Below, piece after piece: positions 8,821 to 44,106 of a stretch of 45,609 nt of DNA. Positions within the stretch are counted from its first letter, which is position 1, and the number at the start of each line of letters is the position of its first letter. The DNA comes from Candidatus Pacearchaeota archaeon (GTDB lineage: Archaea; Nanobdellota; Nanobdellia; Pacearchaeales; GW2011-AR1), in contig JBBDJR010000004.1 of assembly GCA_040879785.1 (NCBI GenBank), forward strand, positions 80,778 through 126,386, written 5' to 3'. The translations under genes and the position numbers were made by a program. The notes under the pieces were generated by a model. That model saw only the letters and a list, made by a program, of their open reading frames with translations. It did no database searches and was not told where the DNA came from.

Positions 8821-10614
8821 TTAAATCTTTCCAAGTTTTTTGGCAAGAGATTCTGTTTCGTCAATCAGGCTTTCAACTTCTTTCAATCCTTTTTCCCAGA
8901 AATCTTTTTTGCTTATGTCAATACCTATTTTATTAAAAATATTTTTTGGAGAATCAGATGTTCCTGCATAAAGGAACTCCTTTACCCTTTCAACGTAATT
9001 TTTATCTTTCTTCACTAAAGACTGCAAGGATTTTGATATGAGAAGCCCTGAAGAATAAGAATAATTGTAAAAGTATTCTCTTATGTGAGGCCAGTAAACC
9101 CACCCTCTATCCATGTCATCACCTCTTTCAAAACTATCTCCCAGGTACTCTTTCATCTTTTCACTAAATAATTCTCCTATCTCATTTTTAGAAAGATACC
9201 CCTTTTCCCTGAATTTCTCATGAAGCACTTGTTCAAATTTGTAACATGCAATTTGTCTAAATATTGTTGAGATGTCTTCCTGAAGTTTCTGCATCATAAT
9301 AATCAGCCTATCTTCTTCATTGGCCGTTTTTAACAATTCATCTAAAACAAAATCTTCCATGAACGTGCTTGCAACTTCTGCAGTTGATTTTGGAGTCCCT
9401 ATGTTTAAGGCGTTGTTTTTTTCTTTCATAAGGCTCATATGGATTGCATGACCAATCTCATGCGCGAAAGTAGTCACATCCCTGATTCTTCCAGTGTAAT
9501 TGAGTAAAACAAATATAGGATTCTTTTTTAATGATGAGATGCAACACGCACCATCTCTTTTACCTTTTTTGGGAAGTGCATTTATCAAGCCTTCTTCCAA
9601 GAACTTATTCAATACTTCTCCGAATTTTTCATCCAATCTGGAAAAAACTTCTCTTATCAAATCCACAGAACTTTCATAGTCGAGGTTCTTTGAGATTTTT
9701 CCGAAATCAATACTTCTTTCTGAATAAGTAAATTTTTCCACGCCCATTAGTTTTGCTTTCAAAGAGTAAAATCTTTGGGAGATTCTAAAGTTATCTGAAA
9801 CGGAGTCAATCAGTGAGTCAACTATCTCTGTTTCAATGTCATCCTCAATATGTCTTGATTCATCAGGCCTCTTATAGTCTCTTAACTCATCATCCACTTT
9901 TTTATTTTCTAAAATAGCATTTAACTCATTTTCAGCTACGTCTTCATATCTCTTAATAATACTATTGAACGCTTTTGAAGCTTTTTCTCTTATCTCTTTT
10001 TGGGAATTATCCATTAAACTTCTTATTTCTGAATAACTCCTTTTTTCTCCCGTTTTTTCATCAAGAACAGCCTCTTCCTTAGACAAGAATCCCGAAAGCA
10101 TATCAACCCAAAACGAATAAGAAGAAGATGATTTTAGTGACATTATTTTTTCTTCTTTTTCTGTGAGAATATGTTTACCCTTAATAAATAATGATTCAAG
10201 GAGATGTTTATAATCTTTAAGAATACCTGATTTTAGAAATTCTTCTTGTTTATCCCTTGGAATTTTAGAAAGATTAATCTCGAAGAAATTTAATTTGTTG
10301 TTGATTTCTTTTCTGAAAGAGTCTGATTTATTTAACTTTGCTCTAATTTCAGGATTATTTTCATCAAGTTGTGTTTTCAAATAGAAATAATAATATTCGT
10401 CTCCTCCTTCAAGATAGTTCGCAGCCAGGTTTTCGTATTCATCAAGCGCTTCTTTCAGGGAAGACTCTTTTTCAAGATAACTTATATCTTTTCTCCATTT
10501 ATCTATGAAATCCTGGGTTTTCTCTCTAATTTTTTCTCTCTTCTCTTCAAAACTCCCTTCTTCAAGATAACTCAAGTCCCATTCTGTTTTCATCTCACTC
10601 AAAAGAGAGCTCAC
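8821..10614 (-). CDS. pepF: M3 family oligoendopeptidase F
   Basis: EWDLS N-terminus, HEIGH zinc motif, AEVASTFME, PHIREYFYNYSY. The true start may be the downstream ATG (MKTEWDL). Confidence 0.92.
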   Translation of the reverse strand: MSSLLSEMKTEWDLSYLEEGSFEEKREKIREKTQDFIDKWRKDISYLEKESSLKEALDEYENLAANYLEGGDEYYYFYLKTQLDENNPEIRAKLNKSDSFRKEINNKLNFFEINLSKIPRDKQEEFLKSGILKDYKHLLESLFIKGKHILTEKEEKIMSLKSSSSYSFWVDMLSGFLSKEEAVLDEKTGEKRSYSEIRSLMDNSQKEIREKASKAFNSIIKRYEDVAENELNAILENKKVDDELRDYKRPDESRHIEDDIETEIVDSLIDSVSDNFRISQRFYSLKAKLMGVEKFTYSERSIDFGKISKNLDYESSVDLIREVFSRLDEKFGEVLNKFLEEGLINALPKKGKRDGACCISSLKKNPIFVLLNYTGRIRDVTTFAHEIGHAIHMSLMKEKNNALNIGTPKSTAEVASTFMEDFVLDELLKTANEEDRLIIMMQKLQEDISTIFRQIACYKFEQVLHEKFREKGYLSKNEIGELFSEKMKEYLGDSFERGDDMDRGWVYWPHIREYFYNYSYSSGLLISKSLQSLVKKDKNYVERVKEFLYAGTSDSPKNIFNKIGIDISKKDFWEKGLKEVESLIDETESLAKKLGKI

Positions 10615-23618: not shown

Positions 23619-24155
23619 TCATCTAAATCTTTCGGGAATATGATTATTATCGTTCCAATACTTAAGTCTCCAGTTTTCAAACTTATCTACCCAATATATA
23701 GAGTTTATCCCCGTTTCTCTTTGCCTAAACCTAATAGTTTTATCTAAGTCTAATTCTAAAAAATAAGACAGGATTATTCTATTTGTGAGCCCGTGACAAA
23801 TTATCAACACTCTTTTTTTATCATCAGGATTTTTTGATATCTTTTTGAGGAAAGATATTAATTCTTCGTAATGTCTCTTTTCTTTTTTACCCCATTTAGG
23901 TTTTCTTTCATGAAATATTTCTGTTTCAAACTCATTAAGTGATTCTTTTACCCTGGGCCTCACCCTTATTTTCTTAGAAACAATTTCTGCAGTTCGTTTT
24001 GCCCTATCCAGATTACTGCAATAAAATTCATCAAATTTCTTAAATTTTCTCAGTCTTTTGGCAAGATATTTTGCTTGTTTAATCCCTTTCTTTGTTAGAG
24101 ATGGATTTTCACCCATTCCTTCCTTGTCGGCGTGCCTGATAAAAATAATCTCCAT
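23619..24155 (-). CDS. Histidine phosphatase (phosphoglycerate mutase-like) family protein
   Basis: IRHA, LTKKGIKQA, SNLDRAKRTA, LNE and ICHG motifs. Confidence 0.9.
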   Translation of the reverse strand: MEIIFIRHADKEGMGENPSLTKKGIKQAKYLAKRLRKFKKFDEFYCSNLDRAKRTAEIVSKKIRVRPRVKESLNEFETEIFHERKPKWGKKEKRHYEELISFLKKISKNPDDKKRVLIICHGLTNRIILSYFLELDLDKTIRFRQRETGINSIYWVDKFENWRLKYWNDNNHIPERFR

Positions 24156-24197: not shown

Positions 24198-24279
24198 CTT
24201 CTTACCCTTCCGACTCTTATGTTCTTTCTTTTAAAAGAAGAAATTGAGATGTGTATTAACTAAACAGTTACAATCAGAA
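24198..24279 (-). repeat. Degenerate copy of the 3' end of gene 29890..31344
   Basis: cttcttacccttccgactc...tctttctt and tacaatcagaa match about 29893-29978; encodes a KKEHKSRKGKK-like remnant. Confidence 0.6.
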
Positions 24280-24435
24280 AAACTTAAATAGTATCATATT
24301 CTCTTAGAAATATTAAAATGTAATGCCCACAATCAAGAATTTAAATCTCTAGAGGGATTAAAAATTCAAATATTTTCAGGTTATGTTATCTTATAAAGGG
24401 ATTAAAACAACAGGATTTAAAGGATATATAATAAT

Positions 24436-25194
24436 ATGAAAAAGGATAAATTAATTTTTGAGGAAATAAGAAATGAAGCTAAAAAGAATAATTCTATAGT
24501 TTGTGTTATGGTAAGAGGATCCTACGTAGAGGAAGGAGGATTAGATAAAAGTAGCAGTGATATCGATTTCTCAGTAATCATAAGGGGAGATGCCAGAGTA
24601 GAAGAGATTATTAATTTTAAAAAGAAATTTAATAAGATAACAAAGAAGTATGGGATACGTATCTCCTCCACTGTTGTAGGGATTGACCAGATAAAGAGGG
24701 ATTTAAAAAGAGGGATACATCTTCACGGAGCAATATCTTCTTCATTTGTATTTCAATTAGCAAGATCCAAAATAATATATGGCGAAGATATGAAAAAAGT
24801 CTTTAGTTCTTTTAAACACTATGATCCTTACACCCCTTATTTTAATGCTGTTAGATTTATAGATAAATTATTTAAAGATTATTTTAAAAAAGAGAGAAGA
24901 AAAAAAGGAATAAACTACTCATTCATTCTTGCTAGAGAATGTGGAGTAACAAAAGGAGTTACAACTTCTAAAAAAAAGATTCTTATAGATATTTTTAAAA
25001 AGCAAATAAGCGAGGAGCAGGGAAAAAATTTAGAGTCTATAATGAAAATGAGGGTAAAACTAAATCTTACAAAAAAAGACCTTCAGATTATATATACTTT
25101 CCTAAAATTTTGTAGAGATTATTTAGGAGAATTTTTGGGTAAGAGTATTCTTAAGGATATTAAAGAGGTAAATTCCTCGAACAAAAATGAATAA
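24436..25194 (+). CDS. Pol-beta superfamily nucleotidyltransferase with helical C-terminal domain
   Basis: VRGSY...SSDIDF (GS...DxD) motif. Confidence 0.8.
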   Translation: MKKDKLIFEEIRNEAKKNNSIVCVMVRGSYVEEGGLDKSSSDIDFSVIIRGDARVEEIINFKKKFNKITKKYGIRISSTVVGIDQIKRDLKRGIHLHGAISSSFVFQLARSKIIYGEDMKKVFSSFKHYDPYTPYFNAVRFIDKLFKDYFKKERRKKGINYSFILARECGVTKGVTTSKKKILIDIFKKQISEEQGKNLESIMKMRVKLNLTKKDLQIIYTFLKFCRDYLGEFLGKSILKDIKEVNSSNKNE

Positions 25195-25798
25195 TAATCC
25201 AAAAATAATCTTAATTGGAGGTCCTCCTGTGGTTGGAAAAACTAGCTTAGCTCATGAGTTATCAAAAAAGACAGGAATAAAGAGGGTTATAGATGTTGAC
25301 GTATTAAGAGATGTGTTAAGAAAGGAAAAGTTTTCAAGAGAAGAGCCATATATTTATCATTATTCAACAACTGCCTGGAGAATAAAAGGGAAATATACTC
25401 AAAAGAATCTGATTGATGCCTATATTAATTATTGTCAGGACTTGAGAAAAGCTATAGAATCTGTGATAGAAAGTTCATATAAGTTTAAGATAGATACAAT
25501 AATTGAGGGAGTACATTTGTTGCCTGAATTTTTTGAGGAATATCTTCATAAGGAGAATTTTAAGTTTTTTATATTATATTTAGGTAAAAAAGATTATATA
25601 AAGAATATACAAAGAAGAAAAGAGGAGAACCATAACGTCAATGTTAAATATTTACTCGAAAATGTTGATAAGGCAGTTCTGATCGGAGAATATTTAATGA
25701 GGCAATCAAAAAAAAGAGGGATTCCTTTAATCCATAATGCTTCAATCAAAAAATCCTGCAATAAAATAATTAAATTTATGAAAATTAAGAATGAGTAA
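25187..25798 (+). CDS. P-loop kinase, 2-phosphoglycerate-kinase-like
   Basis: GGPPVVGKTS, DVLRDVLR, YSTTAW, IIEGVHLLP. Confidence 0.85.
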   Translation: MNNNPKIILIGGPPVVGKTSLAHELSKKTGIKRVIDVDVLRDVLRKEKFSREEPYIYHYSTTAWRIKGKYTQKNLIDAYINYCQDLRKAIESVIESSYKFKIDTIIEGVHLLPEFFEEYLHKENFKFFILYLGKKDYIKNIQRRKEENHNVNVKYLLENVDKAVLIGEYLMRQSKKRGIPLIHNASIKKSCNKIIKFMKIKNE

Positions 25799-26426
25799 TG
25801 TAATTGGGATTGAAGGAATAGACAATAGTGGAAAAACCAGTACAATAGACTTTTTAATCAAGAAAATTGAGAAAGAAGGTTTTTGTGTGAGTACTGCTCC
25901 GAAAAGGGTGGGATTAGAAGAGAGGTTTCCGAGTTCTTTGGAAGAGAGAAAGATATGGTATAGAAAAGGTAATCCAAATGAAATAATTGAGACAAATCTT
26001 TCCAGTGCATTAAAAAGAAACAAAAAAGTTAAGAGTATGGAGGATGACATAGTCTTTGAGAGTAGAGGATATACTACAATACTTTCATCTATGATTGCTA
26101 TGGCTATGCATAGGTATCAAATAAATTATTGGGACGGGAAAATGATTGTCGATGAGATTAATAAAAAGATAAATTATTCTCCCCTGGAATCTCAAACTTA
26201 TTGCCTAAGTTTTGGGAGAGATTTTGACAATGCATTTGATGAAATCAAAAAAAGAGATATTAAAGGAGAATTAAATCAGGGATTCAAAGATTACCTCAAA
26301 AATTTTAATTATGCTTTTGAGAGATTTTCAAAAGAACAAAATAATCTACTTAAACTTAGTGCTTATTCCTCAATTGAACAAAATGCGGAGATTATAATGG
26401 GGGCTCTCTTAAAAAATGAAAACTAA
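25791..26426 (+). CDS. Thymidylate-kinase-like P-loop kinase
   Basis: IGIEGIDNSGKTS; VFESRG in place of the usual DR motif. Confidence 0.75.
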   Translation: MSNVIGIEGIDNSGKTSTIDFLIKKIEKEGFCVSTAPKRVGLEERFPSSLEERKIWYRKGNPNEIIETNLSSALKRNKKVKSMEDDIVFESRGYTTILSSMIAMAMHRYQINYWDGKMIVDEINKKINYSPLESQTYCLSFGRDFDNAFDEIKKRDIKGELNQGFKDYLKNFNYAFERFSKEQNNLLKLSAYSSIEQNAEIIMGALLKNEN

Positions 26427-26850
26427 ATACATGAAGTCCGCTGGAGGAGTTGTTTTTTATATTATAGGTGGTAAAATAAGGTATTTATTATTAAGGCATA
26501 AAAAAACAGGATCTCACTGGGGTTTTCCTAAGGGGAGAGTAGAAGTGAACGAAACTGAAAAACAAACTGCTCTAAGGGAAATTAGGGAGGAAACAGGGAT
26601 AAATAATCTAAAAGCATTAAATTCTTTTAGAGAAATAGAGAGATATTCTTTTTTCAAAAATAATATAAAGATTAAGAAAAAGGTAATTTATTTTCTGGTA
26701 GAAGTTGATTCTTTAAATGTAACCCTCTCCGAAGAACATCTTGAATCTTGCTGGGAGGAATTTTCTGAAGCAATTGAGAAGTTGAAAGATAAAGAAACAA
26801 AAGAAGTGTTAATTAAAGCAAATGAAGAGTTAAGATGGAAGATAAAATAA
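26416..26850 (+). CDS. Nudix hydrolase (Ap4A hydrolase-like)
   Basis: SAGGVVF, HWGFPKGRVE..ETEKQTALREIREETG Nudix box, LSEEH. Confidence 0.92.
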   Translation: MKTKYMKSAGGVVFYIIGGKIRYLLLRHKKTGSHWGFPKGRVEVNETEKQTALREIREETGINNLKALNSFREIERYSFFKNNIKIKKKVIYFLVEVDSLNVTLSEEHLESCWEEFSEAIEKLKDKETKEVLIKANEELRWKIK

Positions 26851-27572
26851 TGATTATCTCTTTTCCAAAATGTGGGAGAACATGGTTCACAATGATTTTA
26901 GGAAGAGCTTTACAAAATTTTTACAAATTCTCAGAAAGATTCATTATTTGTACAGAAGATTTGTCTCAAAGAATAGATGAAATTCCCAATATAAAGATTA
27001 TACATGAAGGTAGTCCTCATTTAAAATCACCTCTTCAAATACAGAAATATTTTGATAAGAATCAAAGTAATTATAGAAACGTAAAAGCGATAATCTTGAG
27101 GAGAGATATTAGAGATGTATTTGTGTCTTATTTTCTTCATATGAAAAAAAGGAAGAAAGGAAGAGAAAGATATAAAGGAGATATCTCAAAATTTATACGG
27201 AGGAAGAAAGGAAGTGCAAGATCTTTTATAAAATATTATAATTACTTAGAAAGAAACAGGAGAATTTTTGGAGACGTCTTATTCTTAGATTATGAAGATC
27301 TTCTGGACAATGGCTTCAAAGAAGTGAAAAAAGCGTTTAAATTTATGGGGTTGTCTTTTATCCCAGATAGGATTATAAAAGAAGCAATAAGTTATTGTTC
27401 TTTTAAAAACATGAAGAATATGGAAAAACAAAATAGATTTAATGTTAAAAGATTAAGGCCCGGAAATATAAAAGATCCAGATTCTTATAAAGTGAGAAAA
27501 GGAATGAAAGGAGATTATATTAATTACTTAAATAAAAAAGATATAGATTACCTGGAAAGCAATTATGTCTAA
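26835..27572 (+). CDS. PAPS-dependent sulfotransferase family protein
   Basis: 5'-PSB loop SFPKCGRTW, 3'-PB RDIRDVFVSY, YEDL, SFKNMK, VRKG..GD. Confidence 0.9.
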   Translation: MEDKIMIISFPKCGRTWFTMILGRALQNFYKFSERFIICTEDLSQRIDEIPNIKIIHEGSPHLKSPLQIQKYFDKNQSNYRNVKAIILRRDIRDVFVSYFLHMKKRKKGRERYKGDISKFIRRKKGSARSFIKYYNYLERNRRIFGDVLFLDYEDLLDNGFKEVKKAFKFMGLSFIPDRIIKEAISYCSFKNMKNMEKQNRFNVKRLRPGNIKDPDSYKVRKGMKGDYINYLNKKDIDYLESNYV

Positions 27573-28179
27573 TAACAATGACATGAATAACCCTTATATA
27601 ACCCCTCAAAATATTGCTAAAAAGGTTATCCCTATTGTTAAATATATCAATGATTTTAAGCCTCACTATACAATTTGTTGTGATAGAAGTGCCAGAATAA
27701 TAGGATATTCTGTTTTTAAATTATATGGTAAAATGTATGGTTCTTTTCCTACTTTTGATTCCACCATGAGGTTTAGAAAGATAAGCAAGAAAGATAGTGA
27801 AGAATCTCTAAAAGATTACCTAAGACCGACTATAGAAGAAATAGCGATGATTTCTAAGAGGCCAAGAGTGTTGATAATTGATGATTGGATTAGGACAGGG
27901 AGAACCCATGAGAATGTTAGACAAATGTTTAAAGAAATAGGGAAAAATTCTATAGACCTAAGATATGCCACTCTTTTGGCTAAGCCAGGAGAAAAAAAGA
28001 TAGACATTTATTGCGAGGAATGTGATGAAAGCCATTTCGTAAAAACTAGCAGATTTCGTAATAATCCCTTAATCCTAGGAGTTGATTATAAAGGGTTTGA
28101 GGCAATACCAATAAGAAGTGAGGAAATGAGAAGTTATAGGAATAAAATCAATCAATCCATAGACAGGCTATTTCCATAA
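27565..28179 (+). CDS. Type I phosphoribosyltransferase-like protein
   Basis: PRPP-binding motif VLIIDDWIRTGRT. Confidence 0.8.
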   Translation: MSNNNDMNNPYITPQNIAKKVIPIVKYINDFKPHYTICCDRSARIIGYSVFKLYGKMYGSFPTFDSTMRFRKISKKDSEESLKDYLRPTIEEIAMISKRPRVLIIDDWIRTGRTHENVRQMFKEIGKNSIDLRYATLLAKPGEKKIDIYCEECDESHFVKTSRFRNNPLILGVDYKGFEAIPIRSEEMRSYRNKINQSIDRLFP

Positions 28180-28180
28180 T

Positions 28181-28657
28181 TTATTTTACTAGATTTATTA
28201 CTTCTTCAGGAGTATTCGCGATGAGGATGTTATCTCCTCCAACTTCTTTTAAAAAATCTTTTGACTTTTGGTTATCGTTTAATAAGATAATTTTCCTTCC
28301 CGCCTTGATTCCCAAAGCTATTTCTGAGAGAGTTCCAGGACCCAATCCGCAAGCAATTATTACATCACTTGATAAAACATTAATATTGTTTCTTGCACTT
28401 CCCATTCCGGTGATAATTGGGATGTCAACATATTTTGAGAGGCCATCGTTATTTTTTGAAGAGGATATCCCTACAGTCATTCCTTTATTTGATTTCGCTC
28501 CCTTGTTTACAGCTTCCATAACACCTATATTCTTCCCTCCTGTAAGTAAGACCCAATCATTTTCAGCTATCAATTTTCCCAGTTTTTCCGCATTAACCAA
28601 GTCTTCTTTAGTTGCTTTTTTTCCGGGACCCATAACTCCAACAATTTTCTTTCTCAT
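28181..28657 (-). CDS. LOG/SLOG family nucleotide-binding protein
   Basis: VGVMGPG, LTGG..GVMEAV..GA, TGMGSARN and GTLSEI motifs. Confidence 0.9.
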   Translation of the reverse strand: MRKKIVGVMGPGKKATKEDLVNAEKLGKLIAENDWVLLTGGKNIGVMEAVNKGAKSNKGMTVGISSSKNNDGLSKYVDIPIITGMGSARNNINVLSSDVIIACGLGPGTLSEIALGIKAGRKIILLNDNQKSKDFLKEVGGDNILIANTPEEVINLVK

Positions 28658-28744: not shown

Positions 28745-28870
28745 TTACTTCTTACTCTTCCGACTCCCGTGCTCTTTCTTCTTCCCAGTTTTCTTCATAT
28801 TCAAAATCATATACACTGCTACAATCAGAATTGCTAAGATAAAGATATATGCATTGAAGAAAGGAGAGAT
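28745..28870 (-). pseudogene. Orphan 3' end (PFF + TM + basic tail) of gene 29890..31344
   Basis: Translates to ISPFFNAYIFILAILIVAVYMILNMKKTGKKKEHGSRKSKK*, versus IALPFFNVYSFLIAILLIVAVYMILNMKKTGKKKEHGSRKKGKK* in the intact gene; an in-frame stop lies just upstream and no start codon precedes the PFF motif. Confidence 0.85.
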
Positions 28871-28937: not shown

Positions 28938-29876
28938 ATGCATTTCAAAACAAAATCAATAAAGGGAAGGAAATATAAGTATGCTGCAAAATCAATAAGG
29001 CTTCCAAATAAAAAAATTCTTTCTATTGAAAAGATATACAAAGATGAGAGTAAAGAGGAATTGGAAGGATATTTTGATAAAAAAGAAAAAGATGAATACC
29101 TAAAATATATGTTAAAGAATTTCAAAACTGACCACATATTTGACGAAATTCAGATGAAAAAAATAGAGGAAATTAGGGTGAATTACAAGAAAATTCTAAA
29201 AAAACTAAGTAGGGCTTCATTAAAGGATTTATTGGACAGATTTACTGCTAATTTTACTTATGAGAATAATGCTCTTGAAGGAAACTCTCTCACTCTAAAA
29301 GATGTAGCGATTGTAATGTTTGAAAACGCTTCAATAAAAGGGAAGGATTTAAGAGAAATTTATGAAACAAGGAATTCAAGAGAAGTTGTTGAAATGATAA
29401 TTAAGAATAAGTTTAGTATATCTCAAGAGGACATAATTAAAATACACAAGATTTTAATGAAAGATATGGATGTTGATACAGGATATAAAAAATTTCCAAA
29501 CCAGATAGTTGGAAAAAAAGTGAAAACAACTCCTCCCGAGAAAGTTCAGGAAGAAATGGAGAAATTAGTTAATTGGTATAATTCAAATAAAAATAGAATC
29601 CATCCTTTAAGAATCGTCGCCATTTTCCATGGGAAATTCGAGAAAATCCACCCTTTTGAGGATGGTAACGGAAGAGTCGGAAGATTTTTGATTAATGTGA
29701 TCCTGATAGAAAACAAATATCTTCCAATGATTATAAGAAAATCACAAAGATTGGCATATTTGACTACCCTGGAAAAATTTGATGATGATCACGAAGATAA
29801 TTTAATAAGATTTGTTTTGGAGAAATTTAAAGAGACGTATAGAAAATTTTTTGAAGTTTATGTTAATTATTTATGA
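28938..29876 (+). CDS. Fic family protein
   Basis: Canonical HPFEDGNGRVGR motif and NNALEGNSL inhibitory-type motif. Confidence 0.93.
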   Translation: MHFKTKSIKGRKYKYAAKSIRLPNKKILSIEKIYKDESKEELEGYFDKKEKDEYLKYMLKNFKTDHIFDEIQMKKIEEIRVNYKKILKKLSRASLKDLLDRFTANFTYENNALEGNSLTLKDVAIVMFENASIKGKDLREIYETRNSREVVEMIIKNKFSISQEDIIKIHKILMKDMDVDTGYKKFPNQIVGKKVKTTPPEKVQEEMEKLVNWYNSNKNRIHPLRIVAIFHGKFEKIHPFEDGNGRVGRFLINVILIENKYLPMIIRKSQRLAYLTTLEKFDDDHEDNLIRFVLEKFKETYRKFFEVYVNYL

Positions 29877-29889
29877 TAATTTATTTTCC

Positions 29890-31344
29890 CTACTTCTTAC
29901 CCTTCTTCCGACTCCCGTGCTCTTTCTTCTTCCCCGTTTTCTTCATATTCAAAATCATGTAAACTGCTACAATCAGAAGTATGGCTATTAAGAAGCTGTA
30001 AACATTAAAGAACGGCAGAGCTATTTGCGCAGGGCATAGTGCAACCCTCGAGTCGCTTTGACATGTTTCCATCTGTTTTTCTGAATCAAGATAGCACAAT
30101 CCGTCATCAAGAACATAATTATCAAGACAACCATCTTCGCCTGGTTCCTCACCAATATTCCCGTCATGCCATTCCCATTCGGCCGTCCAGTTGAAAGTTA
30201 TAAATTCGTCGGTTTCACAGCTTCCGGTTACATCTTCACGTGTATATGTACATGTTCCACCGTCAGTTCCGTCTCCGTCAGTGTTCCACTTTGCATCACA
30301 CTCATTCTCTCCTGAATCCCAATAACACTCACAGTTTCTTTCCTCGTCGCAAAATCCATCCCCCATGTTATATCCTTCCCCCGATTCAACAGTGTGTTTT
30401 GCTGTAATACATAGGTCTGCTTCACATCTGTCTTTATTATAATCCCAGCATAAGTTAATTTCTTCCGCCTCACACCATTCCGGCTTACCCTCAGTCACAA
30501 GAAGCGAGTTGCTGCTATCTTCAAACTCGTTATCATTCCCCACGACCGTCGCAGTAAAAGTATACTTGTCATCGTGGACCGGCTCCGCCGTCCAGGTTCC
30601 TGTCGCGTTTCCGCTATCGTCAAAATTCACATTCTCCGGGTTTGTACATCCGTCAATATCAGAACATGAAGTTCCGCCCCGGAAGACTTCGATTGAGATT
30701 TGTGCTCCCCCAGGAGCATCACTGCAAGCAGGGGTTCCTTCAACAATAAACCCCGCATTACTCCCTTCAGAGGCCGAAATGCCATCCCAACTTGCAGAAG
30801 TTAGGTCGCAATCTGCAGGATCAAAAACAGGAGTAGCACAAATCTTTGATTCATAATTATCTTCTTCTGGTTTTTCGGAGTGCGCATTCGAAAAACTCTT
30901 ATCTTCGTTTGTAGACAAGTAAATAATCTCAATTTTTGGAATATCTTCTTCCTCTGTAGAATTACCACATTCTTTTGTTGCATCAATTGATTCTACTTCT
31001 TTAAAACCACTATAACAGGCATCAGCATCATAATATGAGGAAAGTAAGTCAGGCACTTCGGCATGAGCATTAGTTGATGATGAAATTCCTAAGAACTTTT
31101 CATTTCCATCACACGATGTACTTCCACCCCCAAAATCACAGCATAAAACTTTCTTACCTGGAAAATCAGGCTGGTTTGCCAAGGCAACATGCGCGTTCGT
31201 AAATTCTGAGAGTCTGAGAACAATATTATTATCTCCATCACAGTTGTTTGAATTTACATATGTACAAGTCTGCGCAGAAACGCTCCCAACACTTACGACT
31301 AATAGAAACAGCCCAAGCAAAAATAGTATTCCTTTCAACCTCAT
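29890..31344 (-). CDS. Cys-rich acidic surface protein with C-terminal LPFF-TM-basic anchor
   Basis: Signal peptide, three NAH-containing repeats, Ig-like middle region, Cys-rich stalk, sorting-signal-like C-terminus. Confidence 0.85.
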   Translation of the reverse strand: MRLKGILFLLGLFLLVVSVGSVSAQTCTYVNSNNCDGDNNIVLRLSEFTNAHVALANQPDFPGKKVLCCDFGGGSTSCDGNEKFLGISSSTNAHAEVPDLLSSYYDADACYSGFKEVESIDATKECGNSTEEEDIPKIEIIYLSTNEDKSFSNAHSEKPEEDNYESKICATPVFDPADCDLTSASWDGISASEGSNAGFIVEGTPACSDAPGGAQISIEVFRGGTSCSDIDGCTNPENVNFDDSGNATGTWTAEPVHDDKYTFTATVVGNDNEFEDSSNSLLVTEGKPEWCEAEEINLCWDYNKDRCEADLCITAKHTVESGEGYNMGDGFCDEERNCECYWDSGENECDAKWNTDGDGTDGGTCTYTREDVTGSCETDEFITFNWTAEWEWHDGNIGEEPGEDGCLDNYVLDDGLCYLDSEKQMETCQSDSRVALCPAQIALPFFNVYSFLIAILLIVAVYMILNMKKTGKKKEHGSRKKGKK

Positions 31345-31649: not shown

Positions 31650-32228
31650 ATGGATATATCTTTTATTTTTATAGGTAGTACTCATTCTTTTTTAGATGAT
31701 TTCTCAAAACAAAAAGAAATAATAGAGTCAGTAAAACCCAAATTTCTATTAAGTGAAGAATTAGAAAATTTAAAATTAGATAAGGAAGATAGGTTTAAAG
31801 AAATTCTGGAGAAAAAATTTATTTCAGATATGACTTCTTTTGGTGAAGTTGAAAAACTGGTAAAATTGTGTTTTGAAAAAAAGATTAAACTAATTGGAAT
31901 TGACTTTCATAACTTTGGATTTGACGAAAATCTACAAAGAAAAATAAAGAATCAAAAAGAACTTACAAATGAAGAGGAAGAAATTTTAGAAGAGCTAACA
32001 AAAAAAAGAGAAAAACACCATCTTTCAAAGATTTTGGAATATAAATCAAAAACAAAACTTCCAATAGTTATTATTCTTGGTTGTTGGCATTTAAGAAAAG
32101 ATTCTTTATTAAGAAAAAGATTAGAAAACTATAAAATTATCGCTCCGTTGGATGAAACTGGAGAGGTCTTGTTTGAACCAAGCAATAAAGAAATTAAATA
32201 TGGAGAGATAATTTCAAATGGACAATAA
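31650..32228 (+). CDS. ChaN/EreA/TIKI superfamily-like hydrolase
   Basis: FIGSTH, LLSEE, LIGID, KRE and ILGCWHL pattern of the EreA/ChaN/TIKI fold. Confidence 0.65.
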   Translation: MDISFIFIGSTHSFLDDFSKQKEIIESVKPKFLLSEELENLKLDKEDRFKEILEKKFISDMTSFGEVEKLVKLCFEKKIKLIGIDFHNFGFDENLQRKIKNQKELTNEEEEILEELTKKREKHHLSKILEYKSKTKLPIVIILGCWHLRKDSLLRKRLENYKIIAPLDETGEVLFEPSNKEIKYGEIISNGQ

Positions 32229-33228
32229 GCTAAAACTCAAGGATTCGTTGTATATCTTAAGAGATACTGAAGATAATTATGTTTTTATTTCAACTGCAAC
32301 ACGAAGAATAAAAAAATTTCAAGTAGACTCTTTAGTTAAGGATGTGATTGCTTCCCTTGATTCCGAGCAAACAGAACAAGATTTAAATAAAAGGTTATCT
32401 TCTAAATATGGTTCTCAAGATATAAATTCTTGTTTAAATGCTTTAGAAAAAGAAGGGATTGTTAGAAAATATGAATCTGATTTAGAAAAAGGAAGGCATT
32501 ACAAGCAATTATTATTTTTGGATGAACTTACAGATTCAAGGGAAGAAACTTTAGAATTACAAAAAAGAATAGAAAATTCTAAAGTTGCAGTTTTTGGGGT
32601 GGGCGGAATTGGAACTTGGATTGTAAATGGATTGTATCAAATTGGTGTAGGAGAAATAAGAATCACTGACCCTGATGTTGTAGAGGAAAGTAATTTTAAC
32701 AGGCAGTTATTTTTTGATTCAGGAGATGTTGGTGAGTATAAGGTTAATGTTGTAAAAGAAAAATTAGGGGAGGCAAATATAATACCCTTCAAGAAAAGAG
32801 TTGAACCAAATCAGGATTTGGAGAATATTGTTTTTGGTTGTAATTTTTTAGTAAATTGTGCAGATTCTCCATCGGTTGCAGAAACAACAAGAATTATTGA
32901 TAGTTATGCTAATCAGCACGAAATTGCTTATTGTGTTGCGGGAGGATATAACCTACATTTGGGAATGGTTGGTCCAGTCATTATTCCAGGAGTTACTAAA
33001 ACTTTTGACGATTTTATAGGATATCAGAAAGTAATGGATCCATTAAGAGATTTGGAAAAGATAAGGGACATCAAACAAACAGGAAACCTTGGGCCAATTG
33101 CCGGAGCAGTGGCAAATATTCAAACAATGGAAATTTTTAAGTATCTTACAGGAAAGGGAAGAATAAATCTGAATAGATTCGCAGAAATAGACTTTATGGA
33201 TTTTGGGATTGAATGGAGAGAGTTTTAA
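32218..33228 (+). CDS. ThiF/E1-like adenylyltransferase with N-terminal RRE-like winged-helix domain (MccB/PaaA-like)
   Basis: VFGVGGIG, DPDVVEESNFNRQ, YKV and CADSP motifs; about 85-aa N-terminal extension of three strands then helices; no CxxC zinc motifs. Confidence 0.88.
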   Translation: MDNKLKLKDSLYILRDTEDNYVFISTATRRIKKFQVDSLVKDVIASLDSEQTEQDLNKRLSSKYGSQDINSCLNALEKEGIVRKYESDLEKGRHYKQLLFLDELTDSREETLELQKRIENSKVAVFGVGGIGTWIVNGLYQIGVGEIRITDPDVVEESNFNRQLFFDSGDVGEYKVNVVKEKLGEANIIPFKKRVEPNQDLENIVFGCNFLVNCADSPSVAETTRIIDSYANQHEIAYCVAGGYNLHLGMVGPVIIPGVTKTFDDFIGYQKVMDPLRDLEKIRDIKQTGNLGPIAGAVANIQTMEIFKYLTGKGRINLNRFAEIDFMDFGIEWREF

Positions 33229-36093: not shown

Positions 36094-36939
36094 TTAGATA
36101 AAAAAGGGGCTCTGCCTGAATTCTTCAGATTTCTTCTTTAATAACTGTTTCCATGAGATATTTTTATTCTTCTCTAAATAATCTTCAATTAAGTAATATC
36201 CTATTGTATAACCTGTACCTGAAACATATTTCCCTCCTCCAAAAAACAAATCAGAATGAATACCTGGATTATCATTCATTGTTTTATCTAAAAATGACTT
36301 TAGTTCTTTTAATATTTTCTTGGCTTCATTCCTTGAAACAACCTTTGTGAAAGAATTTCTATTGTCGTCAAGAAATCCTTTTTGAAAATGTTCTGCCAAC
36401 CCATCTGCAACTAAATGTTCAAAGAGAGTCATATCATAAGAATAATAGTCTTGTAAACAATGAGCCAATTCATGTAAAATAGTGCTTTTTAAATTTAGTT
36501 CCCAATTTTGAACAGGATTTATGAATATATGTAAAATATCATCCCAAGCAAGCAGACCCCAAACACCGCCGAGACTCTCAACTACAAACCTGGATTTCGT
36601 CGGGAAGATATAAATTAAAATTTCCCTTCTACCTAATAAGTCTTTTATTTTTTCGAAGATTCCCTCTATTACATTCGTCATTTCTGATAAATTTATTTTT
36701 CCGCTAAAAAGTTCTACTTGCTCATCCTTGAATAAAGAATCTGTTAAATTATGCCTAAAATCTTCTTTATCCATGCATCCTCCAAAATGATCTTTTTCCT
36801 TAAGGGTTTCTATATCCTCACATATCTGATCTAAAAAAAGATCCTTGTCCCTCATAATGCTTATTCTATCTAGAAAAGAAAAAGTTTTCACATCTAAATT
36901 TCCATCTTTTAATCTAATTTTCACATTCTTACGTTCCAT
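36094..36939 (-). CDS. DUF2268-type putative Zn-dependent protease
   Basis: ILHELAH, ADGLAEHF, LFFGG and GYTIGYYLI motifs. Confidence 0.85.
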   Translation of the reverse strand: MERKNVKIRLKDGNLDVKTFSFLDRISIMRDKDLFLDQICEDIETLKEKDHFGGCMDKEDFRHNLTDSLFKDEQVELFSGKINLSEMTNVIEGIFEKIKDLLGRREILIYIFPTKSRFVVESLGGVWGLLAWDDILHIFINPVQNWELNLKSTILHELAHCLQDYYSYDMTLFEHLVADGLAEHFQKGFLDDNRNSFTKVVSRNEAKKILKELKSFLDKTMNDNPGIHSDLFFGGGKYVSGTGYTIGYYLIEDYLEKNKNISWKQLLKKKSEEFRQSPFFI

Positions 36940-36963
36940 AATTTTGGAAGAATAAACAGGCTT

Positions 36964-37677
36964 TTATTCTTTTCTCTTTCCTACATTTATTGTATAAACA
37001 GGTATTTCACCTTCAGTGAGATCCAATATTTGAATTAATGCATCATCTACAAATCCGCTAACAGGACAAGCCCCAATTCCATTTTCTGCAGCTGATAAGA
37101 CAATATTTTGCCCCATGTGCCCTGCTTCAAGGTATGAGAAAGGAAGGGCCTTATGTCTATATTTAACTTCTGAGCGAGAGATAACTGATGTTAATGCAAG
37201 GGTTGCCGCAGGATTAATGATGTTTGTTCCCATTATCTCTCCTTGCCTATTCTCCAAGTCTTTCTCCAACAATGTTTCGAGCGAACAATTATCTACATTA
37301 AAATGATATGCTCCTTTGTTTAGCCCCTCTATATTATATCCAATCATGTAGATCTCAATAGGAAATCGTGCACCTGCAGAAGGGTAAGTTCTTCTTTCAG
37401 GATCTCGTGAATAATCTAATATGCTACAAGAATTTAGTAGTCTAGATATTTCTTCTAAACTCATAGGTTGATCTGAAAACTCTCGAATAGACTCTCTTGA
37501 TTGTAGAATTTTCTGAAGATAACCATCTCCTACTTTTGGAAGAGGATTTTGAGAAAGTCTAGGATACGATTTTTTGAAAATATGGACAAACTCTACAGGC
37601 ATCTCGCTATCACCAATATTCCACTCTATATCTTCTAATTTTAATTTCTCATAAAAATTTCTTGTTTCTTCTAACAT
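36964..37677 (-). CDS. SagB/McbC-type FMN-dependent azoline dehydrogenase
   Basis: RESIREF, RTYPSAGARFPIEIY, catalytic KY (SEVKY), LEAGHMGQN, GFVDD. Confidence 0.92.
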   Translation of the reverse strand: MLEETRNFYEKLKLEDIEWNIGDSEMPVEFVHIFKKSYPRLSQNPLPKVGDGYLQKILQSRESIREFSDQPMSLEEISRLLNSCSILDYSRDPERRTYPSAGARFPIEIYMIGYNIEGLNKGAYHFNVDNCSLETLLEKDLENRQGEIMGTNIINPAATLALTSVISRSEVKYRHKALPFSYLEAGHMGQNIVLSAAENGIGACPVSGFVDDALIQILDLTEGEIPVYTINVGKRKE

Positions 37678-37678
37678 T

Positions 37679-38911
37679 TTAAGTTAAGGGATGTGGTTTA
37701 AGTGATTTATCTTCTTTTACTTCACCATAATGTATGCTATATAATGCTTTTGCCCTTTCATCCAAATATAAAGGATGTAATTCAGGGATTATTATCTTTT
37801 TAGTTTCAAACCCTTCCTTTTTTAATTCGGGAAGAGTAATATCTACTTCAAAAATGTTAAATTTTCTTTCTCCTAACTTTGATAAAATTTCCTGTGGATT
37901 GTTCACCCTAGATTTAAGAGAAGAATAAGAAATCTCTTTCTCTGATTCTAACCAGAAACTCAAATCGTTTATTCTTTCAAGTGGCTGCCAATATACAAAT
38001 CTGTCTTCTAGTGAGAAAATTTCATCTTCGTTCGGAGCTCCTTCAGAAAAACTACCCTCCTTGAATAAGCGAGCATGTCTTCTGCATTGTATTGCCTCTA
38101 AAATGGATTTATAGGCGGAATCTTCATAAGTAAAATCTGAAGCAGAACCGACATCTACTGCAGGACCAAATCCAGTTTTATCAATAACAGCACTTATTAC
38201 TGTGGGAACATCTAAATCAGAAGTTGCATCAAAAGCAAACACCTCTAGATTATATCTTTTTAGATATTCTTCTAATTGTCCAATTTTTCCATTGAAATCG
38301 ATGATTCTTGGCAATTCCGTTCTTGAAATATAAGGATAGATACAAGAGTCTCTCTCAATAACCTCCAGCAAACCAGAATTAAGTGCTCTATCTGTTCCTT
38401 CCTTTCCAAACGCAGTTCCTGTACTTATACTTTCTTTCCTAATTCCAAATTCCCCTTTAAAGAGATTAGATAAATAAACAAGCTGGGCAGGGATAAACTT
38501 AACCCCTCCATTGATTAGATCTCTAGATTGAACCCATAAATAATCGGATTCTCTTGCATCCTTTTTAAATTTTTCTCTATCTCCTATTTGTTCATTGGAA
38601 TAACAACAAAATATCCCCGGATCAACCATTTCCTCCTTATCATCAAATTTTTGGACAAATAATCTATCTTTACGAGGGTTATCTATACATAACCTTTCTA
38701 GGTATTCTGCTACGGATTTTACTCTTGATAATGTTTCATGGGGATGATATCCCTGCCCATGGTCTCCATCGGTTGAATATCTCTCTTGTGCAGTTTCATT
38801 AGGTAAAGTTAAGAAATTTGGTATTTTTGGTTCATCTGTTATATATGGTACACTCTCTTCTGGAGAAGACAGCCCTATATTTCTAATCCTTGTTAATATT
38901 TCTTCTAGCAT
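37679..38911 (-). CDS. YcaO cyclodehydratase
   Basis: AEYLER, IPAQLVY, STGTA and GLLEVIERD ATP-binding motifs; Pro-rich C-terminus PELHPL...KPHPLT. Confidence 0.93.
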   Translation of the reverse strand: MLEEILTRIRNIGLSSPEESVPYITDEPKIPNFLTLPNETAQERYSTDGDHGQGYHPHETLSRVKSVAEYLERLCIDNPRKDRLFVQKFDDKEEMVDPGIFCCYSNEQIGDREKFKKDARESDYLWVQSRDLINGGVKFIPAQLVYLSNLFKGEFGIRKESISTGTAFGKEGTDRALNSGLLEVIERDSCIYPYISRTELPRIIDFNGKIGQLEEYLKRYNLEVFAFDATSDLDVPTVISAVIDKTGFGPAVDVGSASDFTYEDSAYKSILEAIQCRRHARLFKEGSFSEGAPNEDEIFSLEDRFVYWQPLERINDLSFWLESEKEISYSSLKSRVNNPQEILSKLGERKFNIFEVDITLPELKKEGFETKKIIIPELHPLYLDERAKALYSIHYGEVKEDKSLKPHPLT

Positions 38912-42870: not shown

Positions 42871-43371
42871 ATGAAAGATAAGGTAAATTGGCAAGGGAAA
42901 ACTTATGAAATGGAATGGTTAGATGAATTTGATGATCTTTTTTTAGATAAATTACAACAGGTTTATGGATTTCTTTTTGATGACAAGGGGAATATCTGTA
43001 TCGTAAGGCCTACTGAAAAAAGAGGATGGAGGCTTCCAGGTGGAGGACCAGAAAAACAAGATAAAGATTGGAGAGAAACAATTATCAGGGAAGCTATTGA
43101 GGAAGCAGACATTGAAATAGAAAAAGATTCTCTAAAAATTGTTGGATTAATTAAAAATACTCCAATTAGTAAAAATTGCGAAAGAGAAGAAGGTTATGCC
43201 TTAAGAGTTGTTGGAAATATAAGTTCAATTAATAGTCAAACAGAAGATATTGCTGAGGGTCTGATTAATGAAAGGAAATTTGTCAAACCAGAAGAATTTT
43301 TGGACTATTGCCAGTGGGGAAAATTCGGAGAATTTCAAATAAAAAAAGCATTGGGGGTTTATAGGAAATGA
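42871..43371 (+). CDS. Nudix hydrolase
   Basis: WRLPGGGPE...RETIIREAIEEAD variant Nudix box. Confidence 0.88.
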   Translation: MKDKVNWQGKTYEMEWLDEFDDLFLDKLQQVYGFLFDDKGNICIVRPTEKRGWRLPGGGPEKQDKDWRETIIREAIEEADIEIEKDSLKIVGLIKNTPISKNCEREEGYALRVVGNISSINSQTEDIAEGLINERKFVKPEEFLDYCQWGKFGEFQIKKALGVYRK

Positions 43372-44105
43372 AAAAACAATTTTATGACTTGTGGAGAAAT
43401 AAATCTGAATTAGAAAATGCAGGAATACAAAATCTAAAACTTTCAAAAAAATTAATTTTAGAAAATATTCCTTCAAATGAAATTGTTTCTATTTATGTTA
43501 AAGGAAGTTTTGTAAGAAGAGAGATGGTATCTAAAAGTGATATTGATATTATAACTGTTTTAAAGACTAAGAAGCATTTTGGAAAGATAAAAAAATTAGA
43601 TAAGTGGGGAGAAAGATCAAACTTAAAACCTTATCCTCAATTTTTAGGTTATTCTTTATGGGAATTAAAAACAGGAAAAAGGATTAAAAATAATATTGGA
43701 GGCGCTTCCCCTTCCAGAATGGTTAAGCACTTAAAGGAATATAAATTAATTTATGGAAGAGATTTAGTAAAAGAAAATCTTTTCACAAGAACCGATGAAG
43801 AAGATTTAGAAAAATTAGCCAATGTCTTTAGAAAAGAATTCATTCCACAATATGAAAGAGGTAATTTTTCTTTCGGAATGTTGATAAAACAAACATTTTG
43901 GTTAATAGAAAATGAACAAAAAGTAAAAGGAAAAAATCCACCTCATCAATGGAAGAAATTAAGGGATTCTATAAAAGATAGAAATCATATAATTTACGAT
44001 GCATGGAGATTAAGGGAAATTCCAAGTAAAGACAAAGCCATAAGAAAAGAGTATGTTAACAAATTAAAAAAATATATTAAAAAAAACCGTAGATTATTAG
44101 AATAA
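43368..44105 (+). CDS. Pol-beta superfamily nucleotidyltransferase
   Basis: IYVKGSFVRREMVSKSDIDI; ATGA overlap with the upstream Nudix gene. Confidence 0.82.
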   Translation: MKKQFYDLWRNKSELENAGIQNLKLSKKLILENIPSNEIVSIYVKGSFVRREMVSKSDIDIITVLKTKKHFGKIKKLDKWGERSNLKPYPQFLGYSLWELKTGKRIKNNIGGASPSRMVKHLKEYKLIYGRDLVKENLFTRTDEEDLEKLANVFRKEFIPQYERGNFSFGMLIKQTFWLIENEQKVKGKNPPHQWKKLRDSIKDRNHIIYDAWRLREIPSKDKAIRKEYVNKLKKYIKKNRRLLE

Positions 44106-44106
44106 T

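Follow-up and report, generated by a model that had tools for sequence, protein, structure and literature searches.

We describe here a six-gene operon on a 45,609-nucleotide stretch of contig JBBDJR010000004.1 from a Candidatus Pacearchaeota archaeon; this whole stretch is called the window below. The operon lies at positions 24436-28179 and codes, in order, for a nucleotidyltransferase (NTase), two P-loop kinases (Kin1 and Kin2), a Nudix hydrolase, a sulfotransferase of the type that uses 3′-phosphoadenosine 5′-phosphosulfate (PAPS) and a phosphoribosyltransferase (PRTase). All six open reading frames (ORFs) are intact and on the forward strand, their family and catalytic motifs are kept, and the products are predicted to be soluble, with no membrane segment predicted in any of them. 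According to a Pfam scan of 49 distinct window ORFs (E-value limits of 0.01 or 1e-4), the window also codes for the alpha and beta subunits of the proteasome, Rrp4, SBDS, FttA, OapB and OapC, and a domain of the archaeal CCA-adding enzyme. The nearest named relatives of two of the operon proteins come from Nanoarchaeota and Woesearchaeota assemblies, from which we infer a host of the DPANN type (named for the Diapherotrites, Parvarchaeota, Aenigmarchaeota, Nanoarchaeota and Nanohaloarchaeota), small and probably living in symbiosis. The operon genes and their borders are collected in Table 1.

Table 1. The operon, its neighbouring cassette and the repeat copies that border them (positions in the window).
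Feature	Position	Strand	Description
Repeat copy 1	24198-24290	-	Diverged 3′-end remnant of a surface-protein gene; left border of the operon cassette
NTase	24436-25194	+	252 aa; Pol-beta fold, N-terminal catalytic and C-terminal helical domain
Kin1	25187-25798	+	203 aa; P-loop kinase, distant member of the 2-phosphoglycerate kinase (2PGK) family; Walker A at residues 12-19
Kin2	25791-26426	+	211 aa; P-loop kinase like deoxythymidine monophosphate (dTMP) kinases and deoxynucleoside kinases; rare family
Nudix hydrolase	26416-26850	+	144 aa; asymmetric diadenosine tetraphosphate (Ap4A)-hydrolase type; Nudix box GRVEVNETEKQTALREIREETG at residues 40-61
Sulfotransferase	26835-27572	+	245 aa; PAPS type, like cytosolic SULT enzymes; Pfam Sulfotransfer_1 1.4e-24
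PRTase	27565-28179	+	204 aa; type I, HGPRT-like; phosphoribosyl pyrophosphate (PRPP) loop VLIIDDWIRTGRT at residues 102-114
SLOG (LDcluster4) gene	28181-28657	-	Convergent with the operon, inside the operon cassette; Pfam LDcluster4 1.9e-50
Repeat copy 2	28745-28850	-	3′-end remnant of a surface-protein gene; separates the operon cassette on its left from the Fic cassette on its right
Fic-domain gene	28938-29876		In a cassette of its own between copies 2 and 3
Repeat copy 3	29890-29978	-	Real 3′ end of a 484-aa surface-protein gene, 29890-31344 (-)

The six genes are closely joined. Their five junctions overlap by 8, 8, 11, 16 and 8 bp in order; among the 25 remaining pairs of same-strand neighbours in the window, counted from a list of 46 genes, just 3 overlap. 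The coupling of the six is therefore above the general compactness of the window. Base composition also sets the block apart: the G+C content (GC) of the operon genes ranges from 0.274 to 0.324, the 39 genes beyond it have an average of 0.355 (sd 0.042), and a Mann-Whitney comparison of the six and the SLOG gene with these 39 gives p = 0.004. The drop is modest and is not unique to the block, with low values also for the Fic gene (0.283), a 192-aa ORF at 31650 (0.252) and a second NTase gene at 43368 (0.257). A preliminary description of this sequence had given the same six ORFs at exactly these coordinates, junction overlaps of 8-16 bp and a block more AT-rich than other genes; all of these hold, the last of them as a modest shift. 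The six enzyme families that it named are likewise each found by profile search, with Kin2 and the PRTase scoring under the curated Pfam cut-offs. All of the operon proteins fall into known families, as new or distant members, and cluster look-ups yielded hardly any named proteins.

The sulfotransferase is related to SULT1A structures at 4.7e-13. Its 5′-phosphosulfate loop is PKCGRTW (residues 11-17), of which K12, G14, T16 and W17 are found in 84-90% of 51 relatives. For the 3′-phosphate, the motif RDIRDVFVS (90-98) and the later RKGMKGD (221-227) align to the corresponding motifs of SULT1A2, and R90, S98, R221 and G223 are kept in 90-96% of the same relatives. His57, present in 49 of the 51, is equated with the catalytic histidine of SULT enzymes from where it stands in the alignment of the family; in that stretch, the pairwise HMMER alignment with SULT1A2 is shifted. 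With its PAPS-binding and catalytic motifs complete, the enzyme should be able to bind PAPS and to be active. A word-based homologue search found 5 matches for it among 193 candidates.

The neighbouring Nudix protein matches the Pfam NUDIX model at 1.4e-18 (67.7 bits against a cut-off of 21.1) and carries the full Nudix box, GX5EX7REUXEEXGU. The best solved relatives are CT771 (1.6e-13), the Ap4A hydrolase of C. elegans (3.3e-13) and human NUDT2 (1.2e-11); no NCBIfam equivalog cut-off is reached, and the Ap4A-hydrolase-like assignment is that of these sequence relatives. A predicted complex of the sulfotransferase with the Nudix protein scored 0.00 against a mark of 0.32, which speaks neither for nor against binding.

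Turning to the NTase, this protein passes the Pfam Polbeta cut-off (8e-7, 29.6 bits against 26.9), and in its motif GS...DID (residues 28-44) the positions G28, S29, D42 and D44 are invariant in seven aligned sequences. An AlphaFold2 model (predicted local distance difference test score, pLDDT, 70.5) was compared with solved structures using foldseek. It is closest to AAD(9), AadA and ANT(4′), followed by GlnE, LinB and MNT proteins, with template modelling (TM) scores of about 0.45-0.5 and identities of 14-17%. In the ESM Atlas the neighbours are NTP_transf_2 and GlnD-like proteins. The sole NCBIfam match is ANT(9), at 0.0016 and 17.8 bits against a cut-off of 340, which leaves the protein outside this named aminoglycoside family. 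Going by the model, the likeness to aminoglycoside NTases is one of fold only.

A second Pol-beta NTase gene is found in a further low-GC trio at 42871-44550, consisting of a Nudix gene (166 aa), the NTase gene (245 aa) and another Nudix gene (147 aa); one junction of the trio is an overlap of 4 bp, the other a gap of 1 bp. This NTase is 28% identical to that of the operon over 117 aa and the last Nudix protein is 30% identical to the operon Nudix. The pair of NTase and Nudix genes thus recurs in the window without a sulfotransferase.

Kin1 and Kin2 belong to different kinase families. Kin1 matches the NCBIfam model NF003259 at 2.1e-36, and its 125.8 bits lie under the equivalog cut-off of 343; the match spans model positions 91-288 of 306, i.e. 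the C-terminal kinase part. An AlphaFold2 model of Kin1 (pLDDT 82) matches adenylate, shikimate and nucleoside monophosphate (NMP) kinases with no preference among them, and a word-based search returned 4 matches among 117 candidates. Kin2 falls under the cut-offs of both Pfam Thymidylate_kin (5e-5, 23.5 bits against 27) and TIGR00041 (26.9 against 83.25). Its family profile matches solved thymidylate kinases at 3.5e-12, and in the ESM Atlas it reaches TM-scores of 0.73-0.85 to models of dTMP kinases. Kin2 is therefore a relative of the dTMP kinases by fold and profile rather than a filed member. The P-loop reads GIDNSGKT (residues 9-16). The family consensus also includes DRGY, with the R and G nearly invariant; the Kin2 of the window has SRGY, which keeps the arginine and not the aspartate. 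We take this to be the DRY motif with which dTMP kinases hold the acceptor phosphate.

The last protein of the operon, the PRTase, scores 22.6 bits with Pfam Pribosyltran (7.3e-5), under the cut-off of 26.3. It aligns with the HGPRT structure 6igs at 0.0031 over residues 11-156, and the PRPP loop is present. A word-based search returned no relative other than the protein itself (1 match among 40 candidates), which makes it an orphan at the sequence level.

Whether these genes belong together was tested through their fate in other genomes. A scan with an alignment of the sulfotransferase, using one genome per species, gave 459 relatives, of which the best 80 loci were kept. Two of these are archaeal, one from a Nanoarchaeota genome (L001, 46% identity) and one from a Woesearchaeota genome (L002, 42%); the other 78 are bacterial. 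When the window proteins were compared with the 80 loci using tblastn, convincing partners appeared in the two archaeal loci only, along with two weak bacterial Nudix matches. In this search the NTase, Kin1, the PRTase, the SLOG and Fic proteins and the upstream histidine phosphatase each had matches in 0 of the 80 loci.

L001 and L002 have a five-gene block in common, as seen from domain scans and all-against-all BLAST. Between the two loci, identity is 53% for the NTase of this block, 45% for a 400-aa dual P-loop kinase, 42% for a Nudix protein, 41% for a 390-aa protein and 61% for the sulfotransferase. Kin2 is homologous to the N-terminal half of the dual kinase (hhalign 95.7%, 198 columns). 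In L001 the Nudix and sulfotransferase domains are joined in a 402-aa fusion, in the same order as the genes of the window, and the window Nudix is 43% identical to the Nudix domain of this fusion. The arrangement around the sulfotransferase is variable: it forms one operon with the kinase, NTase and Nudix genes in the window, is divergent from them in L001 and convergent in L002. The conserved core, found in both archaeal loci, thus consists of a SULT-type sulfotransferase, an Ap4A-hydrolase-type Nudix, a dTMP-kinase-like kinase and an NTase like the aminoglycoside NTases (ANT-like) with a Pol-beta fold, and a second P-loop kinase accompanies it. Both L001 and L002 lack the PRTase, the 2PGK-like Kin1 and the SLOG gene, which are additions of the genome studied here.

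Further fusions were found through Kin2. An exhaustive search recovered just 39 representative clusters of Kin2 relatives in 1.84 billion proteins. Eight of the 39 were scanned with Pfam, which revealed three Kin2-NTase fusions (437-450 aa) and one further dual kinase. The NTase halves of the fusions align over their full length with the NTase of the operon, those of L001 and L002, and the second NTase of the window. The fused pairs seen in other organisms are therefore of three kinds: Nudix-sulfotransferase, kinase-NTase and kinase-kinase.

In a maximum-likelihood tree of 55 sulfotransferases, those of the window, L001 and L002 form one clade, with support of 100/96, together with the metagenomic protein closest to that of the window. 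The remaining sequences of known origin are bacterial and the tree is in substance unrooted.

Conserved synteny had been proposed in the preliminary description as the check on the gene set, with random accretion to be expected if the genes were not syntenic elsewhere. The core is syntenic in both of the other archaeal loci, gene fusions included, so that the block cannot be called a random accretion. Conservation does not extend to the PRTase, Kin1 or the SLOG gene. Coupling, synteny and fusions all support the earlier suggestion that the genes work together, and we consider it likely that the six form one real functional unit.

Two features of the archaeal loci are worth recording for their own sake. 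The 390-aa protein (6348-7535 in L001, 4071-5222 in L002) lies inside the archaeal module. In Pfam it has a weak match to DUF7132 only, even at E = 10, it has no match in the PDB, and the L001 copy has none in PHROGs. By eye, a pattern QGDP...N...FDFD had suggested a protein-kinase-like or APH-like kinase, a candidate that was rejected as neither Pfam nor the PDB supports it. Secondly, two tandem P-loop kinase genes at 15039-16171 of L001 resemble the N-terminal kinase part of the NCBIfam model for an anti-phage dCTP deaminase (1.4e-14 and 1.9e-10).

The surroundings of the operon carry traces of its history. Three copies of a repeat bound two cassettes, one holding the operon with the convergent SLOG gene, the other the single Fic gene. 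The matched stretches are 24198-24230, 28748-28780 and 29896-29928. Copies 1 and 2 are 85% identical over 33 nt in an alignment that reaches about 90 nt; for copies 2 and 3 the identity is 96% over 75 nt. A 24-nt core of the repeat occurs twice where 0 occurrences are expected. The 484-aa protein is a cysteine-rich surface protein, and copy 3 codes for its membrane anchor and lysine-rich tail. Neither of the other copies holds an intact gene: copy 1 has no intact ORF, and all that copy 2 retains is a 23-aa ORF with the same C-terminal tail as the 484-aa protein. The pattern of repeat-bounded cassettes therefore suggests repeated insertion or replacement at the 3′ end of the surface-protein gene, and the operon was probably acquired laterally. 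The Pfam scan of the window ORFs showed no integrase. Nor is there a tRNA-type integration site, because no tRNA or Rfam family was found in the window. Repeats at 24198 and 28745 had been reported earlier as bracketing the block and the SLOG gene; this is confirmed, and the third copy is added here.

The SLOG protein matches PDB entry 6y01 at 1.7e-52 and the molybdenum cofactor (Moco) carrier protein of Chlamydomonas (2iz5) at 2.2e-39, and judged by these matches it is a close relative of the Moco carrier protein family. Just beyond repeat copy 1, on the opposite strand, lies a gene for a histidine phosphatase of branch 1 (23619-24155). The best NCBIfam matches of its product are alpha-ribazole phosphatase and archaeal dPGM, both far under the cut-off, and the gene was not found in L001 or L002.

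What might such a set of enzymes do? The members of the module use ATP or other nucleoside triphosphates, PRPP and PAPS, and they are joined by three kinds of gene fusion. We infer that the substrate is nucleotide-like, since Kin2 is a relative of the kinases of NMPs and deoxy-NMPs, the Nudix is of the dinucleoside-polyphosphate type and the PRTase is of the purine type. With somewhat less than even confidence, we propose that this translationally coupled operon serves an accessory route in the cytosol by which a nucleotide-like small molecule is tailored and sulfated. At its end would stand a sulfated metabolite of nucleoside or nucleotide type, acting as an antimetabolite or a signal. The single clade of the DPANN-type sulfotransferases and the APS-kinase family gene that adjoins the L001 fusion (see below) also count in favour. 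A nucleotide and PAPS theme had been noted before, and the family matches bear it out, while a sulfated nucleotide as the product is still a proposal.

The pathway could run as follows. The HGPRT-like PRTase would join a free base with PRPP to give a nucleoside 5′-monophosphate, a step that would be special to this genome. Phosphates would then be added by Kin2, in the manner of an NMP kinase, and by Kin1, in the manner of a kinase of small-molecule hydroxyls. The ANT-like NTase may transfer a nucleotidyl group onto a hydroxyl of the intermediate. In a final step, or one included among the others, the sulfotransferase would transfer sulfate from PAPS to a hydroxyl (O-sulfation). The Nudix protein, lastly, may cleave a pyrophosphate-linked intermediate or by-product, for trimming, recycling or self-protection. 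As the PRTase has a counterpart in none of the 80 loci, the step that would turn the substrate into a nucleotide lies outside the conserved core.

DPANN archaea are thought to have a minimal metabolism and to live off hosts. If such an organism uses up PAPS, PRPP and ATP in an accessory pathway for one small molecule, this would point to chemistry for symbiosis, competition or virus defence. If the product is indeed a sulfated nucleotide, it would be a new class among nucleotide-derived natural products or signals; if it is not, a new archaeal clade of sulfotransferases and a rare kinase family will still have been defined. The gene fusions provide a concrete and cheap set of enzymes for expression and assay. 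A much bolder version of this idea is an undescribed DPANN pathway to a sulfated nucleotide or dinucleotide that serves as an antimetabolite, a symbiont-host signal or an RNA/nucleotide end-cap. In its boldest form, the pathway makes its own activated sulfate by means of the Pol-beta NTase and a non-canonical P-loop kinase, which would take the place of ATP sulfurylase and APS kinase. We regard this version as a long shot.

A number of points weigh against a nucleotide-sulfating pathway. The PRTase, Kin1 and the SLOG gene occur in 0 of the 80 loci, and the synteny of the core is that of three genomes. A shallow profile comparison did not link the NTase of the window with those of L001 and L002; the two are tied together via the fusion proteins and a multiple alignment only. 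Kin1 and the C-terminal half of the L001/L002 dual kinase aligned over the P-loop only in the same kind of comparison, with a probability of 9%, and the PRTase showed no link to the 390-aa protein. The NTase model is of moderate quality, and its nearest solved folds are drug-modifying enzymes, which would fit detoxification as well. No ATP sulfurylase or adenosine 5′-phosphosulfate (APS) kinase was seen among the window ORFs scanned. Lastly, the sulfotransferase family at large keeps other company. Counted by locus over the 80, its most recurrent neighbours are glycosyltransferases of the GT4 family (13), followed by NAD-dependent epimerases (11), flippases of the Wzx type (9) and UDP-glucose dehydrogenases (8), and the 78 bacterial loci have no convincing tblastn match to the partner genes.

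These neighbours lead to the first of the alternatives, sulfation of the cell surface or its glycans. Here the sulfotransferase would act on a sugar, for instance that of a glycan precursor, glycolipid or glycoprotein, and the kinases, NTase and Nudix would make, activate or regulate the sugar or the sulfate donor. Further sulfotransferases are also among the recurrent neighbours, and several other such neighbours reflect a conserved gene order of Chloroflexota. Given the polysaccharide genes, the wider family looks like one of sugar or polysaccharide sulfotransferases. The cassette itself has surface-protein genes on either side, whose 3′ ends are its borders, and the NTase fold is like that of enzymes acting on the hydroxyls of amino sugars. 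A review, as far as its available part extends, describes sulfated N-glycans in archaea and uncharacterised DPANN sulfotransferases of another Pfam family (PMC11625862). In searches of the literature on sulfotransferases with these partners or in DPANN or other archaea, we found no characterised DPANN sulfotransferase and no account of a sulfotransferase linked with Nudix, NTase and nucleotide-kinase genes. Against this alternative, neither the cassette nor the flanks of the L001 and L002 modules have a glycosyltransferase, a flippase or a sugar-nucleotide enzyme, and the six proteins are all predicted to be soluble. The dTMP-kinase-like, Ap4A-hydrolase-like and PRTase partners are enzymes of nucleotides, not of sugars. 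The DPANN sulfotransferases moreover form a separate clade, and this clade has moved into a different context, among nucleotide enzymes. We consider glycan sulfation unlikely.

Given the drug-modifying folds, an island for the inactivation of xenobiotics or antibiotics has also to be weighed. In this case the NTase, the kinases and the sulfotransferase would each mask hydroxyls of a toxic small molecule, such as a nucleoside or aminoglycoside-like antibiotic from neighbouring organisms, while the Nudix and PRTase clean the nucleotide pools. The top solved matches of the NTase model include AAD(9), AadA, ANT(4′) and LinB, its one NCBIfam match is to ANT(9), and among solved structures the sulfotransferase is closest to the SULT1 enzymes that conjugate xenobiotics; the low-GC, repeat-bounded cassette also looks accessory. 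However, the TM-scores and identities of these NTase matches are low, and the five overlaps, like the fusions of Nudix with sulfotransferase and of kinase with NTase, are better explained by successive reactions of one substrate than by resistance genes that act independently. To our knowledge, neither dTMP-kinase-like nor 2PGK-like P-loop kinases are drug-kinase families. Detoxification therefore seems to us decidedly unlikely.

A possible role in virus defence was raised in the preliminary description. On this view the operon would be a nucleotide-based conflict system, in which a nucleotide is made, modified or depleted on infection, with the PRTase and SLOG proteins loosely resembling ShosTA. 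The low GC of the cassette is in keeping with this, and the adjoining repeat-bounded Fic gene strongly matches the PADLOC candidates PDC-S04 (2.7e-41) and SoFic (1.2e-31). Within the operon, the Nudix matches PDC-S07 (1.1e-9) and the PRTase matches ShosT (7.8e-5) and PRTase_III-A (2.9e-4). ShosT is a PRTase toxin of a two-protein toxin-antitoxin defence system, according to the available parts of two reports (PMC11961720, PMC12961424). A search with PADLOC-DB 2.0 found no complete named defence system, and the matches in the operon are single and weak or partial (PDC-S07 and ShosT, as above, and PDC-S09 at 0.0033); Kin1, Kin2 and the sulfotransferase have none. The ShosT match covers 55 residues around the PRPP loop. 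The SLOG protein matches only PsyrA (0.0059) in PADLOC, resembles the Moco carriers, and is encoded convergently, so that it is not co-transcribed with the operon. No sensor or effector domain was seen, and the L001 module sits among ribosomal-protein, gyrB and kae1 genes with no evident defence island. Viral sequences were compared as well: Kin2, the sulfotransferase, the NTase and Kin1 had no tblastn match in 50,697 phage records, PHROGs returned generic Nudix and kinase matches only, and foldseek of the NTase model against viral models found generic NTases only. We consider the suggested anti-viral module improbable.

The source of PAPS bears on another alternative, a self-contained PAPS cycle. 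In such a cycle the PRTase would provide AMP, a kinase would serve as adenylate or APS kinase, the NTase would adenylylate sulfate to APS, the Nudix would remove ADP or Ap4A by-products and the sulfotransferase would use the PAPS. An earlier observation that the block has no classical ATP sulfurylase holds for all 49 ORFs scanned, and extends to APS kinase, yet the PAPS motifs of the sulfotransferase are all kept. In L001, a short APS-kinase family gene (8756-9190, 144 aa, 56.6 bits against a cut-off of 21.1) lies directly downstream of kae1, adjoining the Nudix-sulfotransferase fusion and convergent with it; no ATP sulfurylase was found among the L001 ORFs scanned. The Kin1 profile aligns to this APS-kinase family protein (hhalign 90.6%, 57 columns) over the P-loop and the next motif. 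The NCBIfam APS-kinase match of Kin1 (0.0022) covers the P-loop region only, and APS kinase is not among the matches listed for the Kin1 model. The fold search with Kin1 thus gave no preference to that enzyme. Pol-beta NTases are known to act on hydroxyl acceptors, and the closest folds to the NTase model are O-adenylyltransferases. Apart from the L001 gene and its alignment with Kin1, nothing found here supports the earlier proposal that the NTase and a kinase make PAPS together. The Nudix-NTase-Nudix trio has no sulfotransferase, and the NTase is therefore not tied to sulfation. Canonical sulfate-activation genes may also lie elsewhere in the genome, as the window alone was covered. We think a self-contained cycle very improbable; a sulfating pathway would need PAPS that the host supplies or that is made through genes elsewhere in the genome.

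The disfavoured and least credible explanation is that these are unrelated housekeeping genes of salvage and house-cleaning (HGPRT, NMP kinases, a MutT-like Nudix), for although several members come from families with such roles, the genome is tightly packed in general and DPANN archaea depend on salvage, the families here are rare (39 clusters in 1.84 billion proteins for Kin2, 4 matches for Kin1, the PRTase itself alone), the scores are far under equivalog cut-offs, the block has lower GC and repeat borders, and its genes show conserved linkage and fusions with a sulfotransferase.

Three other places in the window may interest readers. Just downstream of the Nudix-NTase-Nudix trio, an IS200-like Y1 transposase (44936-45419) is divided between two ORFs that overlap, the second of which matches Pfam Y1_Tnp at 1.9e-18 from model position 39. 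On the reverse strand, at 36094-38911, there follow in a row a YcaO cyclodehydratase gene, a nitroreductase-family gene and a DUF2268 zinc-protease-like gene, a set that we take to be typical of the maturation of azole-forming ribosomally synthesized and post-translationally modified peptides (RiPPs). Finally, at 31650-33228 a ThiF/E1-like gene overlaps by 11 bp the 192-aa ORF of low GC mentioned above, which has no Pfam family.

Parts of the operon recall known systems. The NTase model shares its two-domain build, with a Pol-beta catalytic and a helical domain, with AAD(9), AadA and ANT(4′). It differs from the aminoglycoside NTases in sequence, with the low identities given above, and in being encoded in an operon of nucleotide enzymes rather than a resistance cassette. 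ShosTA, in the available part of its description, likewise has a PRTase beside a protein of the SLOG superfamily (PMC11961720). The ShosT match of our PRTase is weak and short, and the SLOG gene of the window is convergent and its product a relative of the Moco carriers. ShosA of ShosTA is DprA-like. The PRTase-SLOG pair of the window is moreover absent from L001 and L002.

Two systems share the logic of the proposed pathway. In NAD salvage with NadV and NadM-Nudix, a base and PRPP give a mononucleotide and then a dinucleotide, with a Nudix fused or linked (PMC9503650). NadV is a TIM-barrel PRTase and NadM/NadR an adenylyltransferase of the HIGH superfamily, according to the accessible part of the same source (PMC9503650), whereas the operon has a type I PRTase and a Pol-beta NTase, and the salvage modules as presented there have no sulfotransferase. 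The tubercidin cluster, as set out in the available part of its report, combines the PRTase TubE, the tailoring Nudix TubG and the kinase-family TubH (PMC6112128). TubE builds an unusual nucleoside monophosphate from a base and PRPP, and TubG carries out a tailoring hydrolysis (PMC6112128). No sulfotransferase or NTase features in that account, and TubH is of the carbohydrate-kinase family, not a P-loop kinase; the likeness is in logic only.

The closest parallels in print are nucleoside-antibiotic clusters of Streptomyces, among them, besides that of tubercidin, the ascamycin/dealanylascamycin (acm) and nucleocidin clusters. The ascamycin/nucleocidin clusters have their own sulfate adenylyltransferase and APS kinase, as well as radical-SAM, amidinotransferase and other tailoring genes, none of which are found here (PMC4257720). 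The available part of that account mentions neither a Pol-beta NTase nor an Ap4A-hydrolase-type Nudix in them, and the likeness is one of gene content. In our case the cassette is tiny and accessory, and its host is an archaeon. The ascamycin cluster brings together an adenine PRTase, a sulfotransferase, an APS kinase and a sulfate adenylyltransferase (PMC4257720). What these clusters share with the operon, in the part of the source at hand, is an adenine-type PRTase, a PAPS-type sulfotransferase and P-loop kinases, and the ascamycin-type product is a nucleoside with sulfur-oxygen chemistry at a ribose hydroxyl (PMC4257720).

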